Of a DNA stretch of 45,880 nucleotides, positions 709 through 45,504 are shown piece by piece. The stretch's first letter is position 1, and every line of letters starts with the position of its first letter. The notes beneath the pieces are model-generated. The model saw only the letters and a program-made list of their open reading frames with translations, was not told the DNA's origin and did not search any database. Source of the DNA: a virus (Duplodnaviria > Heunggongvirae > Uroviricota > Caudoviricetes); the IMG/VR virus record IMGVR_UViG_2870484749_000003, positions 1 to 45,880 of that record; one strand, 5' to 3'. Position numbers and translations under genes: made by a program.

Positions 709-1066
709 TATGTGAAGTTCTTCGATAGTATGGAAGGCATTATATAAAAGGACCCAATATTTATTGGGTTCTTTTTTCTCTATCAATGCTATTAGCAGGG
801 AGATATATCACCAGAGTTTAATGTGTGATTTTTTATTTATCGTCGAACCTGGATTGTTTATCATTGGCCTTAACAAAGTTAACGGCTAATAAGATTATTT
901 CCATCACTTCGTGAGAGCTTCATGCCTTGAGAGGATCTCAATTTTCTTTTGCAATGAGACAGGCGCTTCCTGTTGTTATGGTATAGTACCCCGCTATTGA
1001 GCCTCCTGAATAGTGATGCTGAATAACATAACCCCATGATATATCGATAAAATAATCTCTACATTT

Positions 1067-1174
1067 GAAAATGCACGGTAATTCTGAAATGCAAAAAATC
1101 AACCAAACCAGCGCAATGCCTGAAAAAACTGACGTTCACTGGAGTGGTCGGTTTAGCGTTGCACCAATGCTCGA
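1067..1174. other. attL: native dusA 5' region, imperfectly homologous (~80% by eye) to attR at 44464-44570
   Basis: aaaatgcacggtaattctgaaatgcaaaaaatcaacc...atgctcga aligns with aaaatgcacgataatcatgaaacacaaaaaattaatc...atgctcga at the start of the intact dusA; similarity ends at atgctcga in both copies. Confidence 0.75.
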
Positions 1175-1193
1175 TAGGATGTACCGTTGTTGA
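1071..1193 (+). pseudogene. displaced native dusA 5' fragment (35 dusA-like codons, then 5 codons of prophage-end sequence and a stop)
   Basis: Translates MHGNSEMQKINQTSAMPEKTDVHWSGRFSVAPMLD then RMYRC*, paralleling the N-terminus of the intact DusA at 44467 ([38 protein letters not shown]...). Confidence 0.7.
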
Positions 1194-1318
1194 AAAACAA
1201 GTAGTTATACACTCTGTGGGAGCCTATTGGGAACCCGGCGTTTTCATTTCAAGGTGTAATCCATACGCGGCTTAAGAATGAGATATAATGCGACTTTTAG
1301 TGTTCCGCTTGAGAGGCC

Positions 1319-1855
1319 ATGATGCTTACCCTGGACGAGATAGGTCAATCAGTACGTAACAATATCCAGTTGATTATTGATCATGTCGGCTTACCTCTTG
1401 CTGTTGGTCCGCTCAGTGATGATGATTACAAGATTCTGTGTGGTGGCTATGGTGAGCTTGAATGGGACTATGCGTTAAGTACCTATGGCAACTCCAGAGA
1501 AAAGTATGAGTTCTGCATAAAACTTGTTCAGCAAGGTCGGGTTCAGGGAATACCATCAGGAGCAGCAATTTGTGTTTATGGGGTTGAAGAAAACATCTTT
1601 CGTATCCATATGATCGAAAGGTTTTCTAGAGAAGATGAATCTCACCCATTGAAAGGGCGCATGGTTTTACTCACTCTTATGAGTGCTTTTATATTTTGTA
1701 AAGCTGTTGAATGTAAAGTTGTCCACATTGTAGAGCCAGTACCAGAACTGGTGCAGTATTACGAGTCTTTTGGTTTCCGCATGGAACAGTGCGGTTATGT
1801 GATGTCGGCAGTCATTGATGAGCTGCAGGATATCTTTCTTAAATTTGCTCAGTAG
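1319..1855 (+). CDS. hypothetical cargo protein, possibly GNAT-fold acetyltransferase-like
   Basis: 178 aa ORF with RBS gagagg before ATG; C-terminal YYESFGF resembles GNAT motif B; first gene inside attL, opposite orientation to the early-left operon. Confidence 0.5.
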   Translation: MMLTLDEIGQSVRNNIQLIIDHVGLPLAVGPLSDDDYKILCGGYGELEWDYALSTYGNSREKYEFCIKLVQQGRVQGIPSGAAICVYGVEENIFRIHMIERFSREDESHPLKGRMVLLTLMSAFIFCKAVECKVVHIVEPVPELVQYYESFGFRMEQCGYVMSAVIDELQDIFLKFAQ

Positions 1856-2051
1856 GTATAGACGAGAAGGGTCTACAAATTGTAGGATACCCGTCCAGAT
1901 TACCTTAAAGGTACATCTATGGCAGTCGTTTTGTGCTTAAACTACTAAGAAACGATGTCACCAATCGACATGATCGATTGGCATAAGTTAGCGAAACAAG
2001 CTAGCTTTAAAGAAAGGGTTAGAGACGCCTTTACTGTCTCGGGAGTTTTCT

Positions 2052-2225
2052 ATGAAAGATCAAAAAGCAACCAAGCCACAGGTTAAGTTCGACACAATGA
2101 AAGCATTCGCAGGTATGGGTGCTGCTGTTGAAGTTCTGATGAAGGCTGCTCCTAATGCGTTCACTCACGCTACTGTCTCTGGTAAAGAGCAGCAGGGTAA
2201 GCTTCGTCGTCGCAAAGCAGCATGA
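2052..2225 (+). CDS. small hypothetical protein (57 aa)
   Basis: ATG preceded by gggag RBS at 2041-2045 and followed by an intrinsic terminator; below the 60 aa cutoff of the ORF track. Confidence 0.4.
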   Translation: MKDQKATKPQVKFDTMKAFAGMGAAVEVLMKAAPNAFTHATVSGKEQQGKLRRRKAA

Positions 2226-2244
2226 TCATAGCTGGTGCTTTTTG

Positions 2245-2273
2245 AAAACCCGCCTTCAGGCGGGTTTTTTCTT
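2245..2273 (+). terminator. rho-independent terminator
   Basis: cccgcc-ttca-ggcggg hairpin followed by a T-run (tttttt ctt). Confidence 0.6.
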
Positions 2274-2554
2274 TAGTGATGTTCTTTGTCCTTCTGTTTG
2301 ACTGTTCTGACCTGTTCCCACTCGATACGTCCTTCTTCTCGCCTTTTGTCTATGTATTCCGCAAGATCCTGAATATTGATGCAACGTTTTGCTTTTTGTG
2401 ATGTGCCGATGCGATATGTTGGAACGGGCAACTTACAAGCGTTTGCTTTTGCTTCTGCCGTGGCTGGACTCATACCAAAGTACTTTTGGCTAACTGCTGA
2501 GAGTTCAATGTTTGGGGTATTGAATTCAGCCATCAGTAAAAACAAGGTGTTCAT
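2273..2554 (-). CDS. PrtN-family (pyocin activator-like) DNA-binding protein; start chosen at the MNTLFLLMAEF methionine
   Basis: MNTLFLLMAEFNTPNIELSAVSQKYFGMSPATAEAKANACKLPVPTYRIG matches the PrtN-like family by recollection; GGAG RBS upstream of the internal ATG. Confidence 0.65.
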   Translation of the reverse strand: MNTLFLLMAEFNTPNIELSAVSQKYFGMSPATAEAKANACKLPVPTYRIGTSQKAKRCINIQDLAEYIDKRREEGRIEWEQVRTVKQKDKEHH

Positions 2555-2590
2555 AATTTTCTCCATCAAAACCGGCTGCACCCGGGAAAA

Positions 2591-3163
2591 TTATAATTCT
2601 GTGCTGGTGGCAGGAATTAATTTCTGCCAGATAGCGGAAACATATTTTGCCTGATGACGGGCATCGGCCAGGGCGTTGTGCCGTTCGCCATCGAAAGGCA
2701 TGTCCATTTTGGGGTCGAATCCGATGGAACGCCCAAGCGTAACGATCGTGCGTACATCGTGGTCATTCCAGTATGCCCACGGGCAGATTTGTCCTGCTCG
2801 CTCATAAGCTCCACGTAAAATTACGTTGTCGAAGGTGGCCCCGTTACCCCAGACTTTTAAATATTTTGTATTGTCTGCATGCTGATTAATGAAATGGCTC
2901 AGTTCAGAGAGTGCATCGCTGATCGACAAAGTATCATCAATACAGATTGCAGCTCGTGCTTCAGGGCTTTGTTTCAACCACCACAGGATGGTATCGCCGT
3001 CAGGTGTAGCTCCTTGCCCCATAGCACTTTCCAGGCTAACAACCGTATAGAATTCTTGTCCGATGTCTCCGGTTTCTGGAGTGAAGAACACCGCGCCAAT
3101 GGAAACGATCGGTGCATCCTTATTTTTCCCCATCGTCTCAAGGTCGATCATTAAGTTGTTCAT
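2591..3163 (-). CDS. DnaQ-like 3'-5' exonuclease
   Basis: Starts MNNLMIDLETMG (Asp/Glu exonuclease motif I); start ATG overlaps the upstream stop (TAATG). Confidence 0.7.
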   Translation of the reverse strand: MNNLMIDLETMGKNKDAPIVSIGAVFFTPETGDIGQEFYTVVSLESAMGQGATPDGDTILWWLKQSPEARAAICIDDTLSISDALSELSHFINQHADNTKYLKVWGNGATFDNVILRGAYERAGQICPWAYWNDHDVRTIVTLGRSIGFDPKMDMPFDGERHNALADARHQAKYVSAIWQKLIPATSTEL

Positions 3164-6651: not shown

Positions 6652-6891
6652 TCATCGTTGCGTCCTGGTCTCTTCCCAAGCGTCAAACCGAATCGCCACG
6701 CTGGTTAGGCGTCTTATCAGCATCCTCATTGACTTGCACATTCCGGCTACCTGGTTTGTTTGCCCGAGCAAGGAGTGGATTATCCCCTTTAACGTCCCCA
6801 GACCGCTAACGACGCATGTGCCATACGCCGTGTTACAACCAAATTTTGTTAGTACCTTGTTTGTTTGTCTGGAAAGAAAGATAAAATGAAG

Positions 6892-6930
6892 TTGCGCATT
6901 ATGCAAGTGTTTTTGTTGCGAGATATGCAA
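6892..6930. promoter_or_regulatory. candidate left operator sites
   Basis: TTGCGCATTATGCAA (6892-6906) and TTGCGAGATATGCAA (6916-6930) share the architecture of TTGCGCGTTAAGCAA at the cI/cro intergenic region. Confidence 0.45.
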
Positions 6931-6937
6931 TTTAAAG

Positions 6938-6966
6938 GGTAATGAAAAGCCACCTTTGGGTGGCTA
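6938..6966 (-). terminator. rho-independent terminator downstream of the cI-like gene
   Basis: agccacc-tttg-ggtggct hairpin followed on the minus strand by tttcatt. Confidence 0.55.
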
Positions 6967-6985
6967 ATTGATGAGGAGGTAAGGG

Positions 6986-7678
6986 TTAATTGTGTCGCTT
7001 AAGGGTTTGTGACTGGCTGATTAAGACCTTTCCAAAGACCATAAACCGGTGTTCATTTTCGCTGGTAATTCCCCATTCACGGTAAATCTGGTTATCAGAA
7101 ATCACCAGTAGTTTGTCAGGTATCATTTGCAGTCGTTTGACATAAATTTTATCATCAAAACCAAATACATAGATACCATCTCCATCAAACTGATTGATAC
7201 TGACATCAACGAAGATGAGATCTCCTGGCTCAATGGTTGGACACATACTGTCCCCACGAACGTTGATAACTTTAATGTGATTGGCTGGCCGTCCGCCAAA
7301 CATCGATACAGCATTATCAGTTCTGTATTCAATGGCATGAATCACATCAATGACATCACCGCCCTGGATAAGGCCATTTCCCGCACTGGCACTGACATCC
7401 AGCATTTCAATACGGAATACATCCTTCACCTGCGCAACATCCTCACTAATACTGTTTTTACATACAGTATTACTTTTGACGTCTGAGGTAAAGAGATCAG
7501 CAATATCAACACCTAAGCTCCTGGCAATATTACTCAGGGCTTGTTCAGTGAATTGTTTCTGCTTACCTGTTTCCAGGCGTGAGATATTCGCCGCATCCAC
7601 TCCTATTGCTTCAGCGAGATCGGCGATTTTCATGTTCTTCGCCTGGCGAAGTTGTCTGACTCGGTTTCCTATGTTCAT
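6986..7678 (-). CDS. CI-like prophage repressor (HTH plus S24 LexA-like autopeptidase domain)
   Basis: N-terminal HTH (IADLAEAIGVDAANISRLETG); C-terminal GDSM serine and KR lysine motifs; possible Ala-Gly cleavage site in SASAGNG; divergent from the cro-like gene. Confidence 0.9.
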   Translation of the reverse strand: MNIGNRVRQLRQAKNMKIADLAEAIGVDAANISRLETGKQKQFTEQALSNIARSLGVDIADLFTSDVKSNTVCKNSISEDVAQVKDVFRIEMLDVSASAGNGLIQGGDVIDVIHAIEYRTDNAVSMFGGRPANHIKVINVRGDSMCPTIEPGDLIFVDVSINQFDGDGIYVFGFDDKIYVKRLQMIPDKLLVISDNQIYREWGITSENEHRFMVFGKVLISQSQTLKRHN

Positions 7679-7698
7679 GCGTTTATTACATTTCTTTA

Positions 7699-7770
7699 TT
7701 GCGCGTTAAGCAAATCAACTTGCGCAAAATATTTGCGTGAAATAATATGCTTATCACGCAATATGTGGAG
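7699..7770. promoter_or_regulatory. candidate right operators and divergent promoters
   Basis: TTGCGCGTTAAGCAA (7699-7713), TTGCGCAAAATATTTGCGTGAA and TCACGCAATATG between the repressor and cro-like starts. Confidence 0.5.
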
Positions 7771-7775
7771 GTTAT

Positions 7776-8036
7776 ATGCAATCACCATTACGGAATGTGC
7801 GTAAGGCGCACGGATTTACTTTGCAGCATGTTGCTGCTGGCGTTCAGGTCAATCCAGCGACGCTGAGTCGTATTGAAAGACTGGAACAAATTCCATCTAT
7901 CGATCTTGCAGAACGTCTGGCCAATTTTTTTAAGGGTGAAATCAGCGAAATGCAGATTCTTTATCCGGCACGTTTTCAATCTAGCCAAAACCAGAATGGG
8001 TTTAAACCACAGGAACAGGAGGTAAGCCGTGGGTAA
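7776..8036 (+). CDS. Cro-like HTH (XRE family) regulator
   Basis: 86 aa, HTH FTLQHVAAGVQVNPATLSRIE, divergent from the repressor. Confidence 0.8.
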   Translation: MQSPLRNVRKAHGFTLQHVAAGVQVNPATLSRIERLEQIPSIDLAERLANFFKGEISEMQILYPARFQSSQNQNGFKPQEQEVSRG

Positions 8037-8586
8037 TCATCACTGGAAAGTGGAAAAACAGCCTGAGTGGTACGTGAAAGCTGTCAGAAAAACTATCGCG
8101 GCGTTGCCGGGGGGTTACGCTGAAGCTGCTGAGTGGCTGGATGTAACAGAGAACGCATTATTTAACCGCCTTCGTGCCGATGGCGATCAGATTTTCCCGC
8201 TGGGATGGGCAATGATTTTACAACGTGCTGGTGGCACTCACTTCATTGCCGACGCTGTGGCGCAGTCTGCAAATGGCGTCTTTGTGTCTCTTCCTGACGT
8301 CGAGGATGTGGACAATGCCGATATTAACCAGCGTTTACTGGAAGTCATTGAACAGATCGGCAGTTATTCAAAACAGATTCGTTCGGCAATCGAAGACGGT
8401 GTAGTGGAACCGCATGAGAAGACAGCAATTAACGACGAGCTGTACCTCTCAATTTCGAAGCTGCAGGAGCATGCAGCACTTGTCTACAAAATTTTTTGCG
8501 TTTCAGAAAGTAATGACGCCCGCGAGTGTGCAGCTCCGGGCGTCGTGGCGTCGATTGCTTCTGGTTGTGGAGAAACTAACGCATGA
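8029..8586 (+). CDS. hypothetical early-right protein (possibly a CII-like regulator)
   Basis: 185 aa ORF overlapping the cro-like stop; product assignment is a guess from position. Confidence 0.5.
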
Positions 8587-8921
8587 ACAGTTTAACAACA
8601 CACTACCGTCGCTCGCAACTGATTGCGCTTCCTGTACCGGGTGGAAAAGCGAAGGTGGAGTATTGCTATGCAGTAAATGTACCAGGTGACAGGGAAATTG
8701 TAACCCACAGCTTTGCTGAGTGGGCTGTGGGGGATTTCAACCGGCAGAAGGAGACAGTCCTTTGCGACAAGTTAACCGCTGGTTCAAAGATCACTACGGA
8801 GTGCCCGTCAGAGTCATTCGTTGGGAGCCGGAAACACAACGGGTTATCTACCTCCGTGAAGGCTATGAGCATGAGTGCTTCAGCCCGCTCGAACAGTTTC
8901 GTCGTAAATTCAGGGAAATAG
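8583..8921 (+). CDS. hypothetical protein; only the N-terminal half looks protein-like
   Basis: ATG overlaps the upstream stop (ATGA coupling); C-terminal half is low-complexity and overlaps the 8720 ORF in another frame. Confidence 0.35.
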
Positions 8922-8941
8922 AGGTCGGTCATGAGCACTAA
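8720..8941 (+). CDS. hypothetical protein, alternative frame; C-terminal region looks protein-like
   Basis: [45 protein letters not shown]; stop overlaps the start of the replication gene. Confidence 0.35.
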
Positions 8942-9872
8942 ATTAACCGGCTATGTATGGGATGGTTGCGCTGCGTCAGGCATGAAATTATCCAGCGTGG
9001 CAATTATGGCCCGCCTGGCTGATTTCAGTAATGACGAAGGTGTGTGCTGGCCATCAATTGAAACTATTGCCCGTCAGATTGGCGCGGGGATGAGTACCGT
9101 CAGAACGGCTATCGCACGGCTGGAAGCAGAAGGCTGGTTAACGCGTAAGGCGCGTCGCCAGGGTAACCGCAATGCGTCGAATGTTTATCAGCTTAACGTT
9201 GCGAAGCTTCAGGCAGCGGCATTTTCTCAACTGTCAGATTCTGACCCGTCAAAATCTGACGCATCAAAATCTGACACGTCAAAATTTGATGCGTCGAAAT
9301 CTGGCAAAAAAGCGGGTTTTCACCCGTCAGAATCTGGCGGGGATCCGTCAGTAAAATCAAAACATGATCCGTCAGATAAAAAACCTTCTCGTCCGGACGC
9401 TTCGCAACCGGACACGCAGACGGCTGAACAGGATTTTTTAACTCGCCATCCTGATGCGGTTGTATTCAGCCCTAAAAAGCGCCAGTGGGGAACGCAGGAT
9501 GATTTGACCTGCGCACAGTGGCTCTGGAAAAAAATCATTGCCCTGTACGAGCAGGCCGCCGAATGTGACGGCGAGGTGGTTCGTCCCAAAGAACCGAACT
9601 GGACAGCCTGGGCAAACGAAATTCGCCTGATGTGTGTGCAGGATGGTCGTACTCACAAACAAATCTGCGAGATGTACAGCCGCGTCAGCCGCGATCCGTT
9701 CTGGTGCCGTAACGTGCTCAGCCCGTCGAAGCTGCGGGAAAAATGGGATGAGCTTTCCCTGCGCTTATCGCCGTCCATCAGCACATACACAGAAAAACGC
9801 GAAGACCCGTATTTCAAATCCAGTTACGACAGCGTGGACTACAGCCAGATCCCGGCAGGATTCAGGGGGTGA
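8931..9872 (+). CDS. replication initiation protein (O-like, N-terminal winged HTH), with iterons inside the gene
   Basis: N-terminal wHTH (PSIETIARQIGAGMSTVRTAIARLEAEGWL); SKSDASKSDTSKFDASKSG peptide repeats correspond to DNA iterons, as with lambda ori inside O. Confidence 0.75.
   Translation: MSTKLTGYVWDGCAASGMKLSSVAIMARLADFSNDEGVCWPSIETIARQIGAGMSTVRTAIARLEAEGWLTRKARRQGNRNASNVYQLNVAKLQAAAFSQLSDSDPSKSDASKSDTSKFDASKSGKKAGFHPSESGGDPSVKSKHDPSDKKPSRPDASQPDTQTAEQDFLTRHPDAVVFSPKKRQWGTQDDLTCAQWLWKKIIALYEQAAECDGEVVRPKEPNWTAWANEIRLMCVQDGRTHKQICEMYSRVSRDPFWCRNVLSPSKLREKWDELSLRLSPSISTYTEKREDPYFKSSYDSVDYSQIPAGFRG
9231..9384. repeat. iteron array (putative replication origin)
   Basis: Five contiguous ~15-bp repeats of type nCGTCAAAATCTGAC (9231-9305), then degenerate copies CCGTCAGAATCTGGC, CCGTCAGTAAAATC and CCGTCAGATAAAAAAC. 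Confidence 0.65.
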
Positions 9873-9874
9873 GC

Positions 9875-10204
9875 ATGAGTCTTTTGAATGAAGTTCAGAA
9901 ATTCATTGAAGCCCATCCGGGCTGTACTTCCGGAGACATTGCGGATGCTTTTGCAGGTTACTCACGGCAGCGCGTTCTGCAGTCAGCAAGCAAGTTACGT
10001 CAGAGTGGGCGTGTGGCTCACCGTTGTGAAGGGGATACACGCAGACATTTCCCGCGCCTGACTGAGAGAGCGCAGGAGCCGGAACCACAACCAGTTCGTG
10101 AAACCAGACCTGTGCGCAATTTCTATGTCGGCACTAACGATTCCCGGGTGATTTTGTGCCTGACTCGCCAGGCGGAAAAACTGGTCAGGGAGATGGCGGC
10201 ATGA
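9875..10204 (+). CDS. hypothetical protein (possible winged-helix DNA-binding)
   Basis: ATG with GGGGG RBS; translationally coupled (ATGA) to the downstream gene. Confidence 0.5.
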   Translation: MSLLNEVQKFIEAHPGCTSGDIADAFAGYSRQRVLQSASKLRQSGRVAHRCEGDTRRHFPRLTERAQEPEPQPVRETRPVRNFYVGTNDSRVILCLTRQAEKLVREMAA

Positions 10205-10527
10205 CGACGTTAACTCAATGCCAGCAGCAGGTGCTGGATATGCTGATTTCTTACCAGAAAGAACGTGGCTTCCCGCCAACCAATCAGGAGGTGGCAACCA
10301 TGCTGGGATACCGTTCAGTGAATGCAGCGGTGGAGCATCTTCGCGCACTGGAGAAAAAAGGCGTCATCACGATAAAGCGTGGCGTGGCCCGGGGGATCAC
10401 GCTTCATACCGCAGTGAAGGACGACGACAGCGAAGCGGTCGGTATCATCCGCGCACTGCTTGCCGGTGAGGAGAACGCTAGGTTGCGTGCAGCCCACTGG
10501 TTACATGAGAGGGGCCTGAAAGTATGA
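10201..10527 (+). CDS. LexA N-terminal DNA-binding-domain-like protein lacking the S24 peptidase domain
   Basis: LTQCQQQVLDMLISYQKERGFPPTNQEVATMLGYRSVNAAVEHLRALEKKGVITIKRGVARGITL aligns with the LexA N-terminus ([65 protein letters not shown], from memory); only 108 aa. Confidence 0.7.
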   Translation: MTTLTQCQQQVLDMLISYQKERGFPPTNQEVATMLGYRSVNAAVEHLRALEKKGVITIKRGVARGITLHTAVKDDDSEAVGIIRALLAGEENARLRAAHWLHERGLKV

Positions 10528-10913
10528 AGTTGATCCTTCCTTTCCCGCCCAGTGTGAACACGTACTGGCGACACCCCAACAAAGGGGCATTTGCTGGTAA
10601 GAGCCTGATAAGCGAGGCGGGGCGAAAATTTCAGAGCGCGGCGTGCGCAGCAATAGTTGAGCAGTTACGTCGTCTGCCGAAACCAACGTCGGCACCTGCT
10701 TCAGTGGAGATCGTGTTGTTTCCTCCGGATAACCGGATCCGCGATCTGGACAACTATAACAAGGCTCTGTTTGACGCCCTGACCCACGCGGGTGTGTGGG
10801 AAGACGACAGACAGGTGAAAAGAATGCTGGTGGAGTGGGGACCGGTTATCCCGAAAGGGAAGGTCGAGATCACTATCAGTAAGTATGAGAAACCGGCGGG
10901 TGCAGCCGCCTGA
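10524..10913 (+). CDS. rusA: RusA Holliday-junction resolvase
   Basis: MKLILPFPPSVNTYWR...DLDNYNKALFDALTHAGVWEDDRQV, typical RusA; ATGA overlap with the upstream gene. Confidence 0.85.
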   Translation: MKLILPFPPSVNTYWRHPNKGAFAGKSLISEAGRKFQSAACAAIVEQLRRLPKPTSAPASVEIVLFPPDNRIRDLDNYNKALFDALTHAGVWEDDRQVKRMLVEWGPVIPKGKVEITISKYEKPAGAAA

Positions 10914-10932
10914 TTAAGAGGAGAAACGAAGT

Positions 10933-11742
10933 ATGAATAATCTGATGGTCATTGATGGTATTGAAGTTCATCGTGATGCTTATGGGCGTTACAGCCTGAA
11001 CGATCTGCATCGCGCAGCAGTAGCATCTGGTGCAAATGCCAGAACCAAGGAGCCAGGAAAGTTTCTTTCCAGCCAACAAACTGTTGAGCTTGTTCATGAA
11101 TTGACCAACACCCAGAATTTGGGTGTTGACCCGGTGAGTGTGATTCATGGGGGAAATGAACGGGGAACGTATGTCTGCAAGGAACTGGTGTATGCCTATG
11201 CAATGTGGATCAGCCCGTCATTCCATCTGAAGGTGATCCGTACTTTCGACATGGTAACCAGCGCACCGGAAAAATTATCCGGACAGGCTGCTGACAAGAT
11301 GCAGGCTGGTGTGATTCTGCTGGACTTTATGCGCCGGGAATTAAACCTGTCTAACTCTTCAGTGCTTGGTGCCTGTCAGAAACTCCAGGAGGCTGTTGGC
11401 TTACCGAATCTGGCACCGCGCTATGCCATTGATGCTCCTGCTGACGCGCCTGATGGCTCAAGCCGCCCCACGCTGTCGCTGAGTGCACTGCTGAAACAGT
11501 ATGGTATCCGCCTGACGGCTAATCAGGCATATCACCAGATGGCGAAGCTGGGGATCGTTGAACAACGCGAACGATACAGCCGTACCGCGATTAACAACAT
11601 CAAAAAATTCTGGTCGCTGACAGCGAAAGGCTGCATGTTCGGCAAGAACATCACCAGTCCCGCAAATCCGCGCGAGACGCAGCCGCATTTCTTCGAATCC
11701 CGATTCCCTGAGCTGTTAAAGCTGCTCGATACCGTTCATTGA
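10933..11742 (+). CDS. KilA-N domain protein / antirepressor-like
   Basis: N-terminal KilA-N-like region (MVIDGIEVHRDAYGRYSLNDLHRAA...GTYVCKELVYAYAMWISPSFHLKVI) and an Ant/KilAC-like C-terminal region. Confidence 0.7.
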   Translation: MNNLMVIDGIEVHRDAYGRYSLNDLHRAAVASGANARTKEPGKFLSSQQTVELVHELTNTQNLGVDPVSVIHGGNERGTYVCKELVYAYAMWISPSFHLKVIRTFDMVTSAPEKLSGQAADKMQAGVILLDFMRRELNLSNSSVLGACQKLQEAVGLPNLAPRYAIDAPADAPDGSSRPTLSLSALLKQYGIRLTANQAYHQMAKLGIVEQRERYSRTAINNIKKFWSLTAKGCMFGKNITSPANPRETQPHFFESRFPELLKLLDTVH

Positions 11743-11743
11743 G

Positions 11744-12739
11744 GTGACCGTGAGAGCACTACTGACCCCTGAAATTGCCCCGCGTATGGGGATCGTATTG
11801 TTCAGGCCCGGTTCAGAGCTGATGCCCCTGTTTATGCAGGGGCGTGTCCTGCTGGAGCCTGAGCCGGAGCATTATTCATCTTTCGCCAGTGGTGCCGTTC
11901 CCGCGGCGTCACAACCGCTGGCGGATGATCCTGCCGTTTGGGCCGTGTTCCGCAATGAGGCAGTGATCCGTCGTGCTGGTGGCGTGGAATGTCTTGAAAG
12001 CTGGTTACTTCGTGAAAAAGGCTGCCAGTGGCCTCATTCCGACTGGCACAGCGAGAACATGACCACAATGCGACACGCTCCGGGTGCAATCCGTCTGTGC
12101 TGGCACTGCGATAACCAGCTGCGCGATCAGTTCACGGAACGGCTGGAATCAATGGCAACGGATAACTGTGCCCGCTGGGTGTTGTCTGTTGTGCGTCGGG
12201 ATCTCGGTTTTGATGACAGTCACGTTGTGACAATGCCGGAACTGTGCTGGTGGCTGATTCGTAATGACCTGGCGGATGCCTTACCGGAAAGTGCAGCCCG
12301 TAAGGCACTGAGATTACCGAAGCCTGTTGTGCCGTCTGTCACCCGGGAAAGTGACCTTGTGCCTTCGGTTCCTGCTACCAGCATCATCCAGGATAAGGCG
12401 AAAAAGGTGCTGGCGCTGAAAGTGGATCCGGAGTCGCCGGAGTCTTTTATGTTACGCCCAAAACGTCGCCGCTGGGTTAATGAAAAGTACACGCGCTGGG
12501 TTAAGACACAGCCGTGTGCATGTTGTGGAAAGCCTGCTGATGATCCCCACCACCTGATAGGTCACGGTCAGGGTGGAATGGGTACAAAAGCGCATGACCT
12601 CTTTGTGTTGCCTTTGTGCAGAAAGCATCACGACGAGCTGCATGCAGATACCGTGGCATTTGAAGAGATGTATGGCTCCCAGCTGGAGCTGATATTTCGT
12701 TTTATCGATCGTGCGCTGGCAATTGGCGTGCTGGCCTGA
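11744..12739 (+). CDS. DUF968-family protein (YdfU-like) with C-terminal HNH-like Cys/His motif
   Basis: GTG start; C-terminal CACCGKPADDPHHLIGHGQGGMGTKAHDLFVLPLCRKHHDELH; lies immediately upstream of the Q-like gene. Confidence 0.6.
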   Translation: MTVRALLTPEIAPRMGIVLFRPGSELMPLFMQGRVLLEPEPEHYSSFASGAVPAASQPLADDPAVWAVFRNEAVIRRAGGVECLESWLLREKGCQWPHSDWHSENMTTMRHAPGAIRLCWHCDNQLRDQFTERLESMATDNCARWVLSVVRRDLGFDDSHVVTMPELCWWLIRNDLADALPESAARKALRLPKPVVPSVTRESDLVPSVPATSIIQDKAKKVLALKVDPESPESFMLRPKRRRWVNEKYTRWVKTQPCACCGKPADDPHHLIGHGQGGMGTKAHDLFVLPLCRKHHDELHADTVAFEEMYGSQLELIFRFIDRALAIGVLA

Positions 12740-12756
12740 TTTTGTGGAGAAAGTTG

Positions 12757-13110
12757 ATGCGTGATATGTATGAAGTTTTGGACCGCTGGGGGGCATGGGC
12801 TGCTGCAGAAAACAGTGGTGTGGACTGGCAACCGGTAGCTGCTGGCTTCAAGCGGCTTTTACCTCATGGCAGAAAGTCCCGGATTCAGTGCGATGATGAT
12901 GAGGGCATCATAATAGACGGTTGTGTCGCTAGGTTGCGTAAATACAAGCCGGCAGAGTATGAGCTGATAATTGCTCACTTTGTTGTTGGCATTTCGCTCC
13001 GTACAATTGCAAAGAAGCGGAAATGTTCAGACGGAACAGTTCGAAAAGATATGCAAACAGCTATGGGGTTTATTGATGGATGCTTGTCATTTTTTTATTT
13101 AATACAATGA
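12757..13110 (+). CDS. putative late antitermination protein Q (small QuuD-like family)
   Basis: 117 aa from the ATG with GGAGA RBS; HTH-like ELIIAHFVVGISLRTIAKKRKCSDGTVRKDM; position between nin-type genes and the late/lysis region. Confidence 0.5.
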   Translation: MRDMYEVLDRWGAWAAAENSGVDWQPVAAGFKRLLPHGRKSRIQCDDDEGIIIDGCVARLRKYKPAEYELIIAHFVVGISLRTIAKKRKCSDGTVRKDMQTAMGFIDGCLSFFYLIQ

Positions 13111-13189
13111 GTTAAGTGCTATGTAAAATCATTCTACTTTCCCAACTTTTATGTGTATATAATACCAGGGTAAAGTAACGGAGAATCTT

Positions 13190-14230
13190 GTGAACATTCA
13201 AGCAGTAGACATTTTTTGTGGCGCAGGGGGCTTAACTTTTGGGCTAAAAAAAGCCGGGATTGAAGTTTCTCATGGCATTGATATTGATGAGTCCTGCCGT
13301 TTCGCTATTGAGAGCAATAATCCCTTAACGAAGTTCATTAACCAGTCAGTTACTGAACTGCAATCCAGCGATGTGTCTGCTATGTTCAAGGAAGGAAATA
13401 TTAGATTACTTGCAGGCTGTGCCCCTTGCCAACCGTTTTCCAAGTATCGTAATCCAAATAGCAGAAAAGATGATACAAAGTGGCGTCTTTTATCTGAGTT
13501 TCAGAGGATTGTAAGTGATGTCATGCCAGAGCTTGTGACTATGGAAAATGTTCCTCAACTTAGAAATCATAAGGTTTTTGAAGAGTTTGTTAGTGTATTA
13601 AAGACTCTTGGGTATCATCTGTGGTACGACGTTGTAAAATGTTCCGAGTATGGCTTGCCTCAAAATAGACGTAGATTAATTCTAATTGGGTCCATATTGG
13701 GGCCAATCAGCCTTGATCAAAAAAAAGTAAGCCGTAAAGTTACAGTAAAGGATGCTATTGGTCAGTTGCCAAAAATAGGTGCAGGGGAGAAACTCGAAAG
13801 TGATCCATTGCATCGTTCGCCTAAATTAAGGGATATTAACCTTAAACGAATCTTGCACTCTTTACCAGGTGGTACGTGGGATGATTGGCCTGAAGAAATT
13901 AGAGCGGATTGCCATAAAAAGCATTCAGGTGCTACCTATAAAAGTGTTTATGGACGGATGGTTTGGGACGATACTAGTCCTACAATAACTACCCAATGTT
14001 ATGGATATGGTAATGGGCGATTCGGACATCCTGAGCAAAATAGAGCAATAACTTTGCGTGAAGCTGCTATTTTACAATCTTTTCCTATGGATTATAAATT
14101 TATTGGAAAAAATACGCCTTTTTCATTCCAAAAGTTAGGAACGATGATTGGTAATGCTGTTCCCCCTATAATTGGCCAAGTAATAGGGAGAACGTTTGTT
14201 AGGCATGTTGAGGGGATAAATATCCGTTAG
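13190..14230 (+). CDS. DNA (cytosine-5)-methyltransferase (Dcm-like)
   Basis: Canonical C5-MTase motifs: FCGAGG (I), GCAPCQPFS (IV, catalytic PC), ENV (VI), QNRRR (VIII), GNAVPP (X); GTG start with GGAG RBS; AT-rich by eye. Confidence 0.9.
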   Translation: MNIQAVDIFCGAGGLTFGLKKAGIEVSHGIDIDESCRFAIESNNPLTKFINQSVTELQSSDVSAMFKEGNIRLLAGCAPCQPFSKYRNPNSRKDDTKWRLLSEFQRIVSDVMPELVTMENVPQLRNHKVFEEFVSVLKTLGYHLWYDVVKCSEYGLPQNRRRLILIGSILGPISLDQKKVSRKVTVKDAIGQLPKIGAGEKLESDPLHRSPKLRDINLKRILHSLPGGTWDDWPEEIRADCHKKHSGATYKSVYGRMVWDDTSPTITTQCYGYGNGRFGHPEQNRAITLREAAILQSFPMDYKFIGKNTPFSFQKLGTMIGNAVPPIIGQVIGRTFVRHVEGINIR

Positions 14231-14888
14231 AGATAATATAATCTTCAGTTGAGTTTATTAATAAACGAAGATATAGATCAACTCTCTCTGCTCTAGACTT
14301 AACTTCTTCTAAGGGGTCAATTTGCCCCTTTTTAGAGAAGCTAGTACTTCCATGCGCGAGTTCGTTTCTGATATCCTTAAGCAAGTCTAAGTCAATACCA
14401 TTTCTACATTCAGGTGAGTTTGCGATAGTTATTCCGTAAGCCTGCGTTATTTTGTGTAATACAGGCTTGCAAACATTACCATTGAATTCTTTACGAATAT
14501 TCAATGAGGCTGAAATTATTCTTTTGGAAATGTCAGTGCCTATCTTTTTATAAAGGGATTGCCCTGTTTCATTATCTGAAACAATTCTATGTAATATATT
14601 TACTTGAAGCTTCTCCCTGAGTGATGCGTAATTCACCTCATTATCTTGTAAATGATCATAAATTGACTCGATGCAACCTCTGGCAGTATTTTCAACTTGA
14701 TTATATAGCATCATATGAACGGATGATTTTAAAATATTTACCCTTAGGATATTAGATTCTATTTCATCTTGATGCGCTTGCGGATCTAACTGCTGAGTAT
14801 GAATCTCTATAGATGATGCAAGAGAAAGCAGTTCCATAATGTCTCTTGCTCTTTCTTCATATTCATCTCGTAAATCAATTAGACTCAT
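14199..14888 (-). CDS. HEPN-like nuclease (resembles MAE_28990/MAE_18760 family)
   Basis: C-terminal Rx4H HEPN motif in DIRNELAHG; start 2 nt after the DUF262 stop; 3' end overlaps the convergent C5-MTase by 32 bp; AT-rich. Confidence 0.75.
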   Translation of the reverse strand: MSLIDLRDEYEERARDIMELLSLASSIEIHTQQLDPQAHQDEIESNILRVNILKSSVHMMLYNQVENTARGCIESIYDHLQDNEVNYASLREKLQVNILHRIVSDNETGQSLYKKIGTDISKRIISASLNIRKEFNGNVCKPVLHKITQAYGITIANSPECRNGIDLDLLKDIRNELAHGSTSFSKKGQIDPLEEVKSRAERVDLYLRLLINSTEDYIISNGYLSPQHA

Positions 14889-14890
14889 TT

Positions 14891-16051
14891 TTAAATCCCT
14901 AACAACTTATTTTTAACGTAAAAGATTCTGTTTTTTAGCTGGCTGGTATTGTTTGCACTATCAGCAGTAACAAGTGTTTCAAATTCCTCTTCAAATAGCC
15001 ATTCACCTACAGGTACGGCTGGACTCTGGAGTTGTGGGTTAGTTTTTAATGCAAGTGCAGTTCCCACGGCAATGGCTTCGTATCTGGCTCGTGGGGTGGT
15101 TTTACTTGTTGCGGTCTTTTTAAAGCCAATAGGGAAATGGGTAGCAACAAAAGCAAGCATCATTTCAAAATCATGTTTAAAATTATCAACATCTTGTTGA
15201 GTAGTCACAGCTGCTGCTTGTTCATTTAAATAATTATCAATAAAGGGACGGACAAATCCCTTATAGTTTTCTAAATCATTTAAATATGCAAAAAATCTCA
15301 AAACTAACTCACGATGATCGCCATTCGACCGTTTCCGGTCTGATAATGGAGCTAGTTGGGAAAAAAGTGAGTTTGTTGAGCATGGGGTCACAACATCTTT
15401 ATAGAACATTGAGGTAGCAGCATCTGAGCCATGCCTCACTTCCATCGCTTCTAATCTTTTAACACCTGAGTTGATCCTTTCAAATAAATCTCTTCTATGT
15501 TGTTCCTCAACATCACCTTTCAACTCAATAAATCTTAGTGAAGCTCTTAAAAATCTTCTTTGGCGGCTAGCTAAAAGATCTGAAAATTTGAAACCTTCTA
15601 AACTTTTAAGCTCTTTCAAATCCTTTAACTCAAATTGATCGTTCCAAAAATAATAAATAGAGCGTATCCGTTGTGAACCATCAATGATTTCTACCCTACC
15701 ATCTAATTCAGGGTCTTCATTAAATACATCAGCAATGTAAAGGTAAGGTATTGGAAAGTCTAATAGAATACTTTCTATAAAGCGAGAGGCTGTTTTTGTA
15801 TCCCACTTGTAATCACGTTGATAATCTGGAATAAAAAGCTCGTTTTTGTCATTTTCAATATTATCACCATACTTTTGAATAATGACTTCAACGGTCCACT
15901 CACGTACATTGTATCCAATGTTTCTCTGAGCGAGTCTGATTTCATTGTCAGCGGAAGCGGTTAAAGCTGCAATTTCAGCCTTTTTTCTGTTCTTAGCGTG
16001 TTCATCTTGTATCTGAGCAAGCTCTTCTTTGAGTTCTTTGAGTGTAGTCAT
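14891..16051 (-). CDS. DUF262 (ParB/Srx-like) domain protein
   Basis: IPDYQRDYKW and IDGSQR (DGQQR-type) DUF262 signatures; AAGGAA RBS; no recognisable DUF1524/HNH C-terminal domain; AT-rich. Confidence 0.8.
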   Translation of the reverse strand: MTTLKELKEELAQIQDEHAKNRKKAEIAALTASADNEIRLAQRNIGYNVREWTVEVIIQKYGDNIENDKNELFIPDYQRDYKWDTKTASRFIESILLDFPIPYLYIADVFNEDPELDGRVEIIDGSQRIRSIYYFWNDQFELKDLKELKSLEGFKFSDLLASRQRRFLRASLRFIELKGDVEEQHRRDLFERINSGVKRLEAMEVRHGSDAATSMFYKDVVTPCSTNSLFSQLAPLSDRKRSNGDHRELVLRFFAYLNDLENYKGFVRPFIDNYLNEQAAAVTTQQDVDNFKHDFEMMLAFVATHFPIGFKKTATSKTTPRARYEAIAVGTALALKTNPQLQSPAVPVGEWLFEEEFETLVTADSANNTSQLKNRIFYVKNKLLGI

Positions 16052-16067
16052 GTTTTCGTTCCTTTAA

Positions 16068-16096
16068 TTGAAAGTTGATTGTAAGAAAACTATAAC
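16068..16096 (+). promoter_or_regulatory. candidate sigma70 promoter (TTGAAA-N17-TATAAC), possibly the late promoter feeding the terminator at 16152
   Basis: -35/-10 match by eye about 55 nt upstream of a strong terminator, resembling a pR'/tR' arrangement; speculative. Confidence 0.25.
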
Positions 16097-16151
16097 GCGT
16101 ACGCAAAAAGTATTGTATTGTGTTAAGAGTGGTTACTTCGCCACACAACTT

Positions 16152-16178
16152 AAACCCGCCGTCGAGCGGGTTTTTTTG
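16152..16178 (+). terminator. rho-independent terminator (candidate tR')
   Basis: cccgc-cgtcga-gcggg hairpin followed by ttttttt. Confidence 0.7.
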
Positions 16179-16299
16179 TACCTGTAAACCTGGTGCAGTA
16201 CGGTAAACACGCTGGTGGTCGTGAATACTGACTTTTTATCTTGCTGGCTTTTTAGACAAGAGTTATTGGTATGTCATGTTAACCAGAAGGAAAAAAGAC

Positions 16300-16494
16300 A
16301 TGCTAAAACAGCAAGATATGACAGAAACGGCGAAAGTTGTTTTTAATGAATTAAGCATCGAACCGGCAACAGTCGGGGAGATTGCACAAAACACATATCT
16401 TTCACGCGAACGCTGTCAGTTAATACTGACCCAGTTGGTTATGGCGGGGCTGGCAGATTACCAGTTCGGCTGTTACAGACGCCTTCAGCAATGA
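16300..16494 (+). CDS. small HTH-like protein (64 aa) upstream of the N6-methyltransferase
   Basis: AGGA RBS; helix-turn-helix-like VGEIAQNTYLSRERCQLILTQL. Confidence 0.45.
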   Translation: MLKQQDMTETAKVVFNELSIEPATVGEIAQNTYLSRERCQLILTQLVMAGLADYQFGCYRRLQQ

Positions 16495-16643
16495 AGGACT
16501 TTTAATTTGTGAAAATGGGCGGCTGGTGGGTGTTGGTAGCACCTGCCAGCCATTCGCTCATGCTTACTGGTCACAAGCGAACCACGGCCCACTGCTTTAG
16601 CGCAAAAGCAGAGTGAGCCTACCAGAGTTACGCTTACTGATCC

Positions 16644-17696
16644 ATGAAAAATACTGTAAAAATAAACAGTGTTGATTTAATCAACGCTGATTGCCTGCAT
16701 TTTATTCAGTCCCTGCCTGATGATTCCATTGACCTGATTGTTACCGATCCGCCTTACTTCAAGGTGAAACCCAACGGTTGGGACAATCAGTGGAAAGGGG
16801 ACGAAGATTACCTTAAGTGGCTGGACCACTGTCTGGCCCAGTTCTGGCGGGTGTTGAAACCTGCCGGAAGCCTTTACCTGTTCTGTGGGCATCGCCTGGC
16901 ATCTGATATTGAGATCATGATGCGTGAACGTTTCAACGTGCTTAACCATATCATCTGGGCGAAGCCGTCCGGACGTTGGAATGGGTGTAATAAAGAAAGT
17001 CTGCGCGCATATTTTCCTGCCACAGAGCGCGTTCTGTTTGCTGAACATTACCAGGGGCCATATCGCGGCAAAAGTGACGGCTATGCGGCAAAAGAAAGGG
17101 AACTCAAACAGCACATAATGGCACCGCTGATATCGTATTTCAGGGATGCTCGTGCCGAACTGGGTATAACGGCAAAACAAATTGCCGAAGCCACAGGTAA
17201 GAAAAATATGGTTTCCCACTGGTTTGGTGCCAGTCAGTGGCAGTTGCCGAATGAGGCTGACTATCGGAAGTTACAGGCACTGTTTTCCCGTATAGCGGCA
17301 GAGAAGTTTCAGGAACAACAACTGGAACAACCACACCACCAGCTGGTGGCATCTTATGATTCACTGAATCGCAAATATTCTGAATTGCTGGATGAGTTTA
17401 AATCTCTCCGGCGCTATTTCTCCGTATCAGTCTCCGTGCCTTATACCGATGTCTGGATGCATAAACCCGTTCAGTTCTACCCGGGTAAACATCCGTGTGA
17501 GAAACCGGCGGATATGCTCAGGCAAATAATCAATGCCAGTAGTCGACCTGGTGATCTGGTTGCTGATTTTTTTATGGGATCCGGTTCCACAATAAAAGCA
17601 GCAATGGCGCTGGGGCGTCGGGCCTTAGGTGTTGAGCTTGAGTCAGAGCGGTTTAACCAGACAGTGAAAGAGATAAACGAGCTGGTGGGGAAATAA
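16644..17696 (+). CDS. DNA N6-adenine (or N4-cytosine) methyltransferase, beta-class
   Basis: DPPY catalytic motif near the N-terminus and FxGSGST SAM-binding motif near the C-terminus. Confidence 0.85.
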
Positions 17697-43280: not shown

Positions 43281-44378
43281 TCAAGGGGTCTTATTTCTGC
43301 TCCTTTGGAGCTCTTCAAAACGATTATGTAAAGATTTCGGATACAGTTCGGTATATACCTGCCATAGCACGTTTAATGAACGATGCCCTGTAACCTGGGC
43401 TACTTCCTCAATACTAAAACCAGCCTCAAATAAGCGACTTGCCCCTTCTCTACGCAAATCATGGTATCGCAGATCCTTAATACCTAATTTGCTTCTTACC
43501 CTCTGAAATCCCGCAGTAACAGAAGTGCTGTTATATGGAAAAATGAATTCCGATTTTTTGGGCTGTCGTTGGACGATATCCCAGGCTTCCCCAAGCAAGG
43601 CTACTTTCATGTGGTTGCCTTCCTTTTTGCGTGGATCTTTCCTGTCTCTTACGAGTATAGATTTTTGTTCCTGGTCGAGATCTTCCCATCGTAACCTGCA
43701 TACTTCTCCGATTCGCATACAGGACCACACAGAAAATTTGAGGATATCAACGAACGGAATTTTTGAGCATTTATGAGTAGATCGTTGTTGAAGGCCTTCA
43801 ATGAGCATGTCCAGTTCATCAGATGCTGGTCTACGATTACGACGGTTTGATTTACCAATCAAACCAAGTTTAAGTAGATATGGACGAGCACTTTTCGCCG
43901 GGTTTGATGTGTAATTAATTCCGTATACAGGTTTGGCCGCATCCAGAACACTGCCAAGATAACTAACATCGTGGCTGACTGTTGCTGGACCTGCGCCAGC
44001 GTTGTTTCTTAGCCTGCAATGTTCAATTACGTCATTTTCTGTCAGTTCAGATAGTTTGATCGCGGAGATGTCACTATCCATAAGCAGTTCCAGCACATAT
44101 CTTTTAGTACGGCCTGCTTTACCTCCGGCATTTGGGTCATTTAAATATTTGTGTAGTAAGTCACGGACTGTAAGTCCGTCAACTGCATTTGATGATGGAA
44201 TGCCATATAGATCTAATTCCATCACTTTCTGTGTGCCCCATGTTTTGGCATGAGCATGTTTAGGGAATGTTTTGCTTTCCCTGTAAGTGATAACACCTTT
44301 TTCTTTGATAATCACATTACAGCGATAGCGTGGTGTGCCATCGGATTTTAGTCGTTTCTCTATGTTATAGTACGCCAT
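43281..44378 (-). CDS. int: tyrosine site-specific integrase (dusA-associated type)
   Basis: 365 aa with C-terminal R...HxLR...Y catalytic pattern (RYHDLRREGASRL...HRSLNVLWQVY); adjacent to and divergent from dusA. Confidence 0.9.
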   Translation of the reverse strand: MAYYNIEKRLKSDGTPRYRCNVIIKEKGVITYRESKTFPKHAHAKTWGTQKVMELDLYGIPSSNAVDGLTVRDLLHKYLNDPNAGGKAGRTKRYVLELLMDSDISAIKLSELTENDVIEHCRLRNNAGAGPATVSHDVSYLGSVLDAAKPVYGINYTSNPAKSARPYLLKLGLIGKSNRRNRRPASDELDMLIEGLQQRSTHKCSKIPFVDILKFSVWSCMRIGEVCRLRWEDLDQEQKSILVRDRKDPRKKEGNHMKVALLGEAWDIVQRQPKKSEFIFPYNSTSVTAGFQRVRSKLGIKDLRYHDLRREGASRLFEAGFSIEEVAQVTGHRSLNVLWQVYTELYPKSLHNRFEELQRSRNKTP

Positions 44379-44463: not shown

Positions 44464-44570
44464 AAAATGCACGATAATCATGAAACACAAAAAATTAATC
44501 AAACCAGCGTGATGCCTGAAAAAACTGGTGTTTACTGGAATTCTCGGTTTAGCATTGCTCCTATGCTCGA
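44464..44570. other. attR: prophage-supplied replacement 5' end of dusA, homologous to attL
   Basis: See attL; similarity to 1067-1174 ends at atgctcga (44563-44570). Confidence 0.75.
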
Positions 44571-45504
44571 CTGGACGGACAGACATTGCCGCTATTTCTT
44601 GCGTCTGCTTTCCCGCAATACGTTGCTGTATACCGAAATGGTGACCACAGGGGCGATTATTCACGGTAAAGGTGATTATCTGGCGTACAGTGAAGAAGAA
44701 CATCCGGTAGCGTTGCAACTGGGCGGTAGCGATCCGGCGGCGCTGGCGCAGTGTGCAAAGCTGGCAGAAGCGCGCGGATATGATGAGATCAACCTGAATG
44801 TCGGCTGCCCGTCTGACCGGGTGCAGAACGGCATGTTTGGTGCGTGTCTGATGGGTAATGCGCAGCTGGTTGCCGACTGCGTGAAAGCGATGCGCGATGT
44901 GGTGTCGATTCCGGTGACGGTGAAAACGCGTATTGGCATCGACGACCAGGACAGCTATGAATTTCTCTGCGATTTCATCAATACCGTTTCCGGCAAAGGC
45001 GAGTGTGAGATGTTCATCATCCACGCACGTAAAGCCTGGCTTTCGGGGTTAAGCCCGAAAGAAAACCGTGAAATCCCGCCGCTCGATTATCCGCGTGTGT
45101 ATCAACTGAAGCGTGACTTTCCGCATCTGACAATGTCGATTAACGGTGGTATCAAGTCGCTGGAAGAGGCCAAAGCACACCTGCAACATATGGATGGCGT
45201 GATGGTCGGGCGCGAGGCGTATCAGAATCCGGGTATTCTGGCGGCGGTAGACCGGGAGATCTTTGGTTCCTCGGATACCGATGCCGATCCGGTGGCGGTA
45301 GTGCGCGCCATGTATCCGTACATTGAGCGTGAACTCAGCCAGGGGACGTATCTCGGCCATATTACCCGGCATATGTTGGGCTTGTTCCAGGGTATTCCTG
45401 GCGCGCGGCAGTGGCGGCGTTATTTAAGTGAAAATGCCCATAAAGCGGGTGCAGACATTAATGTGCTGGAACACGCGCTCAAACTGGTGGCGGATAAGCG
45501 TTAA
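44467..45504 (+). CDS. dusA: tRNA-dihydrouridine synthase A with prophage-derived N-terminal codons
   Basis: 345 aa Dus-family TIM-barrel protein ([15 protein letters not shown], catalytic Cys region [11 protein letters not shown]); followed by pspG as in E. coli. Confidence 0.95.

Follow-up and report, generated by a model that had tools for sequence, protein, structure and literature searches.

A methylase, DUF262 and HEPN gene trio in an Escherichia coli lambdoid prophage: a candidate modification-linked immunity module

Here, we analysed a stretch of DNA of 45,880 nucleotides (IMGVR_UViG_2870484749_000003, positions 1-45,880; hereafter the window), which holds an Escherichia coli lambdoid prophage integrated in dusA and, within this prophage, a cassette of 2.9 kb. 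The cassette consists of three genes, which encode a C5-cytosine DNA methyltransferase (hereafter the methylase), a HEPN protein of the MAE_28990 family, predicted to be a ribonuclease (RNase), and a DUF262 protein (Table 1). A preliminary description of the window had listed the coordinates of the three open reading frames (ORFs), the overlap and the tight coupling between them and their motifs, and all of these were confirmed from the sequence. What we add is a quantified survey in which the trio stays together as a unit in lineages ranging from cyanobacteria to gut Actinobacteria.

The methylase gene and the DUF262-HEPN pair are convergent and overlap by 32 bp at their 3' ends, and convergent overlaps of 4-38 bp are also seen in homologous loci. 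The DUF262 stop codon and the ATG of the HEPN gene are separated by 2 nt (AGGGAtt-TAA-aa-ATG) and the HEPN Shine-Dalgarno sequence, AGGGA, sits within the 3' end of the DUF262 gene, a junction typical of translational coupling. The GC content (guanine plus cytosine) is 0.35-0.39 over about 13000-16500 and 0.50-0.56 in the flanks. RefSeq names the products "DNA cytosine methyltransferase", "MAE_28990/MAE_18760 family HEPN-like nuclease" and "DUF262 domain-containing protein", while PHROGs places the DUF262-HEPN pair in families of unknown function (phrog_2598 and phrog_3846).

Table 1. Positions of the cassette genes and of surrounding features in the window.
Feature	Position	Strand	Remarks
C5-cytosine DNA methyltransferase	13190..14230	+	346 aa, RefSeq WP_001025377.1
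MAE_28990-family HEPN protein, predicted RNase	14199..14888	-	229 aa, WP_001564336.1
DUF262 protein	14891..16051	-	386 aa, WP_001564338.1
Methylase/HEPN convergent 3'-end overlap	14199..14230	.	32 bp; coordinates and sequence
Tentative -10 element of the methylase, TATAAT	13158..13163	+	manual reading; not called by consensus scan
Tentative Shine-Dalgarno sequence of the methylase, GGAG	13180..13183	+	manual reading; in the 79-nt Q-to-methylase spacer
Tentative sigma-70 promoter of the DUF262-HEPN operon, TTGCGT-17 nt-TACAAT	16078..16106	-	manual reading
Terminator-like hairpin (16152-16173) and T-run, phage backbone	16152..16180	+	sequence scan
Q antiterminator	12742..13110		PF06530, E=5.4e-46
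N6/N4 DNA methylase	16644..17696	+	N6_N4_Mtase PF01555, E=2.2e-42; PADLOC MTase_II, 3.3e-152
KilA-N protein	10933..11742	+	
DUF968 protein	11744..12739	+	PF06147, 1.6e-80; C-terminal HNHc_6-like region, PF16784, 9.5e-6
Tyrosine integrase	43281..44378	-	
dusA, intact	44467..45504	+	
dusA fragment at the other prophage end	about 1071..1175		RefSeq
178-aa ORF	1319..1855		no Pfam match

The domain assignments of the preliminary description were borne out by Pfam for all three proteins. The methylase matches PF00145 (E=2.7e-54), PADLOC MTase_II (1.2e-88) and TIGR00675 dcm (1.8e-34), and it has the canonical C5-methylase motifs that had been read from it, with the catalytic Cys80 in GCAPCQPFS; motifs I, IV, VI, VIII and X are at least 90% conserved among 30 orthologues. 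The region between motifs VIII and IX, which normally determines specificity, is likewise conserved, which points to a single target sequence throughout the family. The methylase is the slowest-evolving of the three proteins, with an identity to the E. coli protein of 48-56% across phyla over its full length, and the methylases of homologous trios are orthologous. PDB sequence matches (DNMT1, M.HaeIII, 3g7u) span the catalytic core only.

The DUF262 protein matches GmrSD_N/DUF262 (PF03235, E=5.8e-26) and contains motifs I (IPDYQRDYKW/YQRDYKW), II (DGSQR) and III (FERIN), which are conserved in its homologues at identities of 35-45% to the E. coli protein across phyla. An AlphaFold2 (AF2) model resolves two domains, an N-terminal ParB/Srx-fold nucleoside triphosphatase (NTPase) domain and an all-helical C-terminal ParBDB-like domain, and the model matches BrxU and SspE. 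The proposal that a separate HEPN protein takes the place of the usual DUF1524/HNH domain agrees with these data: Pfam gave no DUF1524 match in the DUF262 protein, and its C-terminal half showed no nuclease-fold match in the structure model. A PDB sequence search with the DUF262 protein gave no match.

The HEPN protein matches HEPN_MAE_28990 (PF18737, E=2.9e-17; 64 bits, with a cut-off of 26.8) and HEPN_RiboL-PSP (PF18735, E=1.4e-7). Its Rx4H motif (R174...H179, in RNELAH) is invariant in 16 close homologues and conserved in at least 90% of 39 distant ones; the identity to the E. coli protein across phyla is 20-33%, and a PDB sequence search gave no match. A profile search against 1.84 billion representative proteins, clustered at 50% identity, returned 1,282 HEPN clusters at E<=1e-3, and the best 150 of these 1,282 matches are for the most part free-standing proteins, about 220-250 aa long.

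Distribution and co-inheritance of the three genes

Does the DUF262-HEPN pair occur outside this prophage, and does it do so with a methylase? A survey of gene neighbourhoods had been set beforehand as a test, and we found that DUF262 and HEPN genes do co-occur elsewhere, mostly with a C5-methylase. A pattern scan of one genome per species yielded 61 loci, which were annotated with iteratively built hidden Markov models (HMMs). These loci come from Cyanobacteria (including Microcystis), Collinsella, Nonomuraea, Chloroflexi, Bacteroidota, Verrucomicrobia, Lactobacillus, Paenibacillus and several proteobacterial orders. The survey set comprises 39 lineages, dereplicated at 90% HEPN identity, from at least eight phyla, and 36 of them could be evaluated for the methylase.

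In every complete locus, DUF262 lies directly upstream of HEPN. A C5-methylase gene is the immediate neighbour of the pair in 57 of 67 loci and in 32 of the 36 evaluable lineages (89%). Where all three proteins are full-length (30 lineages), the methylase gene stands in one of three arrangements, convergent with the pair in 20 lineages, co-directional and downstream in six and co-directional and upstream in four. The full trio is also present in 50 of 51 loci from IMG/VR, the remaining locus being cut by the contig end. Mantel tests on pairwise protein distances gave correlations of r=0.81 between methylase and DUF262, r=0.83 between methylase and HEPN, and r=0.94 between DUF262 and HEPN (p=0.0005 each).

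Based on adjacency in 32 of 36 lineages and in three gene orders, on co-divergence and on methylase orthology, we conclude that the three genes are one co-inherited system and probably not an orphan methylase beside an abortive-infection (Abi) pair. Of the two possibilities raised in the preliminary description, the functional tie between methylase and DUF262-HEPN is thus supported, and an orphan anti-restriction methylase beside an Abi pair is disfavoured.

The preliminary description had also taken the AT-richness of the cassette as a sign of separate acquisition. The low GC content agrees with this, and so does the presence of the trio in a Tn7-like element, on plasmids, in a P2-like phage and in other prophages; these settings are unrelated and include three different prophage slots. 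In a Yersinia mollaretii prophage, the trio lies between Q and the lysis genes, in Salmonella bongori prophages between HigBA and holin, and a further copy is on a Klebsiella plasmid. Within E. coli, the 3.2-kb region was found at about 100% identity and at least 80% coverage in 107 of 5,426 complete genomes (about 2%), while a nucleotide-level search of the deposited phage genome collection did not find the cassette DNA. Among the prophage contigs of IMG/VR, by contrast, the cassette is common.

Several of these loci deserve a separate description. In Pseudoalteromonas sp. MMG024 (6662-16675), the trio stands directly beside tnsE-tnsD/tniQ-tnsC-tnsB and is apparently cargo of a Tn7-like transposon. 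In the Salmonella bongori prophages (L003-L005), about 0.9 kb separates the methylase side of the trio from a HigB/helix-turn-helix (HigA-like) toxin-antitoxin pair, so that this slot stacks two candidate defence or addiction modules. In the P2-like phage Peduovirus P24B2 (140-3041), DUF262 and HEPN are located in the defence hotspot beside replication gene A. A Desulfobacterales metagenome-assembled genome (MAG) encodes a second, more divergent DUF262 protein (216-1355) about 2 kb upstream of its trio, which matches the family HMM at E=5e-82, and two Microcystis loci (L017 and L027) carry the same trio.

Relation to described systems

The preliminary description did not recognise the DUF262-HEPN pairing as a named or described system, and this claim has to be withdrawn. 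A pair listed as "DUF262, HEPN" in Table S1 of Vassallo 2022 is PD-T4-2 from E. coli ECOR65 (PMC9519451), a MAE_28990 HEPN-ParB-methylase operon appears in Table 1 of Anantharaman et al. 2013 (Biol Direct 8:15; PMC3710099), and RefSeq names all three proteins. By the content of its genes, the cassette is a member of this computationally described MAE_28990 HEPN-ParB-methylase class: its HEPN protein scores over the curated cut-off and keeps a conserved Rx4-6H motif, and it is accompanied by an operonic gene of the ParB superfamily and by a gene for a DNA methylase. In 2013, the class was given a single line, from computation, together with a general hypothesis of PrrC-like action for HEPNs linked to restriction-modification (R-M) systems, and that entry comes without quantification, experiment or prophage carriage. 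In the literature searched, no paper characterises a methylase, DUF262 and HEPN system and MAE_28990 is named only in PMC3710099; the trio is not described in the sources on WonAB, GrwAB and HEC-05/06/08, in the Menshen paper or in the R-M review. The methylase-bearing form of DUF262-HEPN appears to be experimentally untouched.

A check against PADLOC gave a divided result, in that the DUF262 protein was matched by models of named systems and no complete system among the PADLOC v2 models matched the cassette. Its best match is NsnA (5.9e-45; residues 14-315 against profile positions 11-302 of 385), followed by PD-T4-2_A (E=4.6e-27; profile positions 52-322 of 363), and this scoring order is the same in all relatives tested. 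A weak match to REase_II (PDLC03418) over the DUF262 core has an E-value of 7e-4 here and down to 5e-16 in relatives. The HEPN protein matches no PADLOC v2 model, PD-T4-2_B included, at E<=0.1, and because of this the cassette is likely to be missed or mis-scored, as NsnA only, when defence systems are counted in E. coli, Klebsiella, Enterobacter, Collinsella and cyanobacteria.

A close and experimentally validated system is PD-T4-2, which protects K-12 against T4 when cloned and whose deletion sensitises ECOR65, where its native locus lies at about 338-340 kb of QOYX01000002; its B protein matches HEPN_RiboL-PSP and HEPN_MAE_28990 by HHpred, and the supplement lists accession RCO39066.1 and, for the second gene, 'No ID' (PMC9519451). 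Both are two-gene operons of DUF262 and a small HEPN protein of the RiboL-PSP/MAE_28990 clade. However, PD-T4-2 spans 1,540 bp whereas the pair here spans 1,853 bp, PD-T4-2 has no methylase, and the PD-T4-2_B model misses the HEPN protein here, with only Collinsella reaching E=0.0048 among the relatives tested. From the PADLOC models and the published HHpred tables, the pair here would be a sister lineage of PD-T4-2 rather than the same family. A tblastn search of phages and plasmids returned members of the cassette family and no PD-T4-2 orthologue, and a search for DUF262 homologues that was aimed at PD-T4-2 returned close relatives only.

Other systems share single features with the cassette. 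The DUF262 protein has the architecture of NsnA, defined as ParB-DUF262 plus ParBDB, from Menshen (NsnABC; Millman 2022; Li et al. 2025). Both NsnB and NsnC are needed for Menshen, and we rejected membership since neither the NsnB ATPase nor the NsnC inPIN-effector is present, the neighbours being only HEPN and methylase. With GmrSD, BrxU and SspE the cassette shares the ParB-fold DUF262 NTPase with QRxxxW, DGxQR and FxxxN motifs, and SspE is also tied to a DNA-modification module, albeit phosphorothioate (PT) where that of the cassette is 5-methylcytosine (m5C). Membership was rejected here as well, as there is no DUF1524 His-Me nuclease and the effector is a separate predicted HEPN RNase.

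PD-lambda-5, a prophage-borne ParB/HEPN fusion with a Dam-like methylase, was called a compacted RM+Abi system (PMC9519451) and resembles the cassette as a compact, prophage-borne combination of a ParB-like domain, HEPN and a DNA methylase. It differs in having ParBc instead of DUF262, a fused HEPN of DUF4145 type and a Dam-like N6A methylase, as against the separate genes and the C5 methylase here, and it was rejected because no PD-lambda-5 model is among the 19 PADLOC matches of the DUF262 protein. PrrC-EcoprrI likewise couples a HEPN RNase functionally to an R-M system, but with an ABC-ATPase N-domain, a type Ic hsd operon and unrelated component proteins. Finally, an active-looking methylase tightly linked to a partner gene recalls classical type II R-M; this assignment was rejected because the partners are of DUF262 NTPase type and HEPN RNase type and show no known DNA-endonuclease fold beyond the weak REase_II match over the DUF262 core.

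A modification-linked reading and its alternatives

How might the three proteins work together? As the most likely reading, we propose that the trio is one modification-linked immunity module, probably also with an addiction function, in which the methylase would mark self, the DUF262 protein would read the mark and the HEPN RNase would act as effector; we give this reading a probability of about one half. The methylase would mark cellular and prophage DNA alike with m5C at one fixed sequence. The DUF262/ParBDB protein would be an NTP-driven switch that reads this mark, as DUF262 does in GmrSD, BrxU and SspE, and it would control the translationally coupled HEPN RNase rather than license a fused His-Me DNase. 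DNA of the wrong modification state would then lead to RNA cleavage by HEPN, to translation arrest and to an aborted infection. We favour activation by unmethylated target sites on invading DNA, because a specificity frozen across phyla fits a methylase and a separate reader that share one site. Restriction would thus be carried out by an RNase in what otherwise resembles an R-M system.

Precedents exist for parts of this scheme: DUF262 is a sensor/NTPase in related systems (PMC12065111, PMC10952713), PD-T4-2 shows defence by a DUF262-HEPN pair in its native host and when cloned (PMC9519451), and an R-M-linked role was predicted for MAE_28990 HEPNs (PMC3710099). The more specific version, an R-M-type immunity in which the methylation state is read by the DUF262 NTPase and passed to the HEPN RNase, with a specificity frozen across phyla and as a widespread class, is put forward tentatively.

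Several observations weigh against the proposed scheme, above all the intact DUF262-HEPN pairs that keep all motifs and have no adjacent methylase. Such pairs were found in Nostoc/Tolypothrix, Trichodesmium, a Thiotrichales MAG, Paenibacillus, Aphanizomenon and on an E. coli plasmid (L014, L015/L031, L021, L065, L066 and pVE155). The genomes concerned include Aphanizomenon FACHB-1287, Nostoc carneum NIES-2107, Trichodesmium MAG_R02 and Paenibacillus plantiphilus. The Aphanizomenon pair (L014) is more than 90% identical to that of Dolichospermum (L009), which has the methylase where L014 has none, glyS beginning 189 bp after HEPN; this looks, from the comparison of the two loci, like a recent and clean loss of the methylase with retention of the pair. 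In P24B2, the methylase is split into ORFs of 136 and 234 aa, by a frameshift or a sequencing error, beside an intact pair. Such pairs imply that the pair is not always lethal without a methylase in cis, and PD-T4-2 also works and is tolerated without one (PMC9519451). Either a methylase in trans covers these pairs, or the mark is required to switch the system on and not to protect the cell. Moreover, the RNase activity of the HEPN protein is predicted from the Rx4H motif alone, and its structure model is of modest confidence (predicted local distance difference test, pLDDT, 67.6). The reverse decay is seen in one locus (L061), where the methylase is kept, HEPN is truncated and DUF262 is missing.

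The E. coli IncFIA plasmid pVE155 (2828-5074) encodes a DUF262 protein of 353 aa and a MAE_28990 HEPN protein of 211 aa, with the N-terminal fragment of an IS21-type transposase immediately downstream of the pair; this fragment may mark the site of methylase loss.

The methylase-less pairs of several independent lineages would be accommodated by a polarity like that of Ssp, in which m5C on self DNA activates or licenses the DUF262 NTPase, so that loss of the methylase silences the defence and does not kill. SspE cleavage is licensed by PT recognition and BrxU acts on m5C DNA (PMC10952713, PMC13251355, PMC12707154), and the methylase is the most conserved component, as expected if it were required for function. 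We nevertheless consider this polarity unlikely, since it gives no account of how an RNase could distinguish an infected cell from one that grows normally, and PD-T4-2 works without a dedicated methylase.

The two-layer scheme that Anantharaman et al. put forward explicitly for R-M-linked HEPN families (PMC3710099) is PrrC-like: methylase and DUF262, acting as a ParB-fold DNase or nickase, would form a minimal R-M system, and HEPN would fire when an anti-restriction factor disables it. Some ParB-fold proteins are nucleases, and the weak PDLC03418 match covers the DUF262 region; however, the DUF262 domain is an NTPase/sensor and not a DNase in GmrSD, BrxU and SspE, the C-terminal half offers no nuclease fold, and the tight translational coupling together with the DUF262/HEPN co-divergence suggests that these two proteins act in one complex. 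This makes the two-layer scheme quite improbable.

Very unlikely, in our view, is a reading as two independent modules that share no more than a vehicle: an orphan methylase evading host restriction and a PD-T4-2-like abortive-infection pair. Orphan methylases are frequent in prophages, and a second methylase, of the N6/N4 type, is present here (Table 1); PD-T4-2 needs no methylase, and the pair stands alone in about 11% of lineages. Against this, adjacency is held in 89% of lineages and in three gene orders, including non-phage chromosomal, transposon and plasmid contexts, and the methylases are orthologous and co-diverge with the pair.

Finally, a module that mainly stabilises its mobile element by post-segregational killing, with no meaningful anti-phage role, is likewise very unlikely. 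The module is always found on, or as, mobile cargo, R-M and toxin-antitoxin (TA) modules commonly behave so, and the gene order, with an antitoxin-like gene ahead of the HEPN toxin, recalls a TA layout. Against this, PD-T4-2, its relative, is genuinely a defence system, intact methylase-less pairs argue against strict addiction logic, and the two roles are not mutually exclusive.

If the modification-linked reading is true, the cassette would couple epigenetic self/non-self discrimination on DNA to an RNA-targeting effector, in a genetically tractable unit native to E. coli prophages. It would join R-M systems, the DUF262 sensors of GmrSD, SspE and Menshen and the HEPN abortive-infection toxins, which have so far been studied apart, and it could explain what pairs of the PD-T4-2 type sense.

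Prophage slot and neighbouring genes

The cassette had been placed between Q and the lysis genes, and this holds with a qualification. Q lies upstream, and the order 3' of the cassette is the terminator-like hairpin, a 72-aa ORF, the N6/N4 methylase and then holin, lysozyme and Rz; the cassette is therefore inside the Q-to-lysis interval and does not directly abut the lysis genes. Likeness to other lambdoid phages restarts at about 16086 (query position 2987), which sets the right-hand boundary of the cassette. Phage Ayreon carries other small cargo between Q and the equivalent terminator, which is annotated there, and because of this different cargo at the same place we regard the cassette as occupying a variable moron slot. 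At one prophage end, the tyrosine integrase gene abuts the intact dusA, and at the other a dusA fragment lies beside a DUF2713 pseudogene and zur.

The methylase gene has the same orientation as Q and the late genes, while the DUF262-HEPN pair runs antisense to them, behind a weak candidate promoter of its own. This candidate matches the consensus at 8 of 12 positions, under the threshold of the scan, and the consensus promoter scan as a whole returned 13 sites with 10.6 expected from shuffled sequence, i.e. no better. It is a matter of speculation that late transcription could raise methylase and lower DUF262-HEPN expression during lytic growth.

The N6/N4 methylase between the terminator and holin is kept at the same position in phage Ayreon, where it is annotated 'putative DNA methylase'. 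RefSeq annotates a class I S-adenosylmethionine (SAM)-dependent methyltransferase in the early region, so that the prophage has at least two DNA methylases. Directly upstream of Q stand the KilA-N gene and then the DUF968 gene, both of which look like ordinary lambdoid nin-region genes. A further low-GC stretch (0.37-0.43) covers positions 1-2500 of the window, partly outside the prophage in the region of the DUF2713 pseudogene, and holds the 178-aa ORF listed in Table 1.

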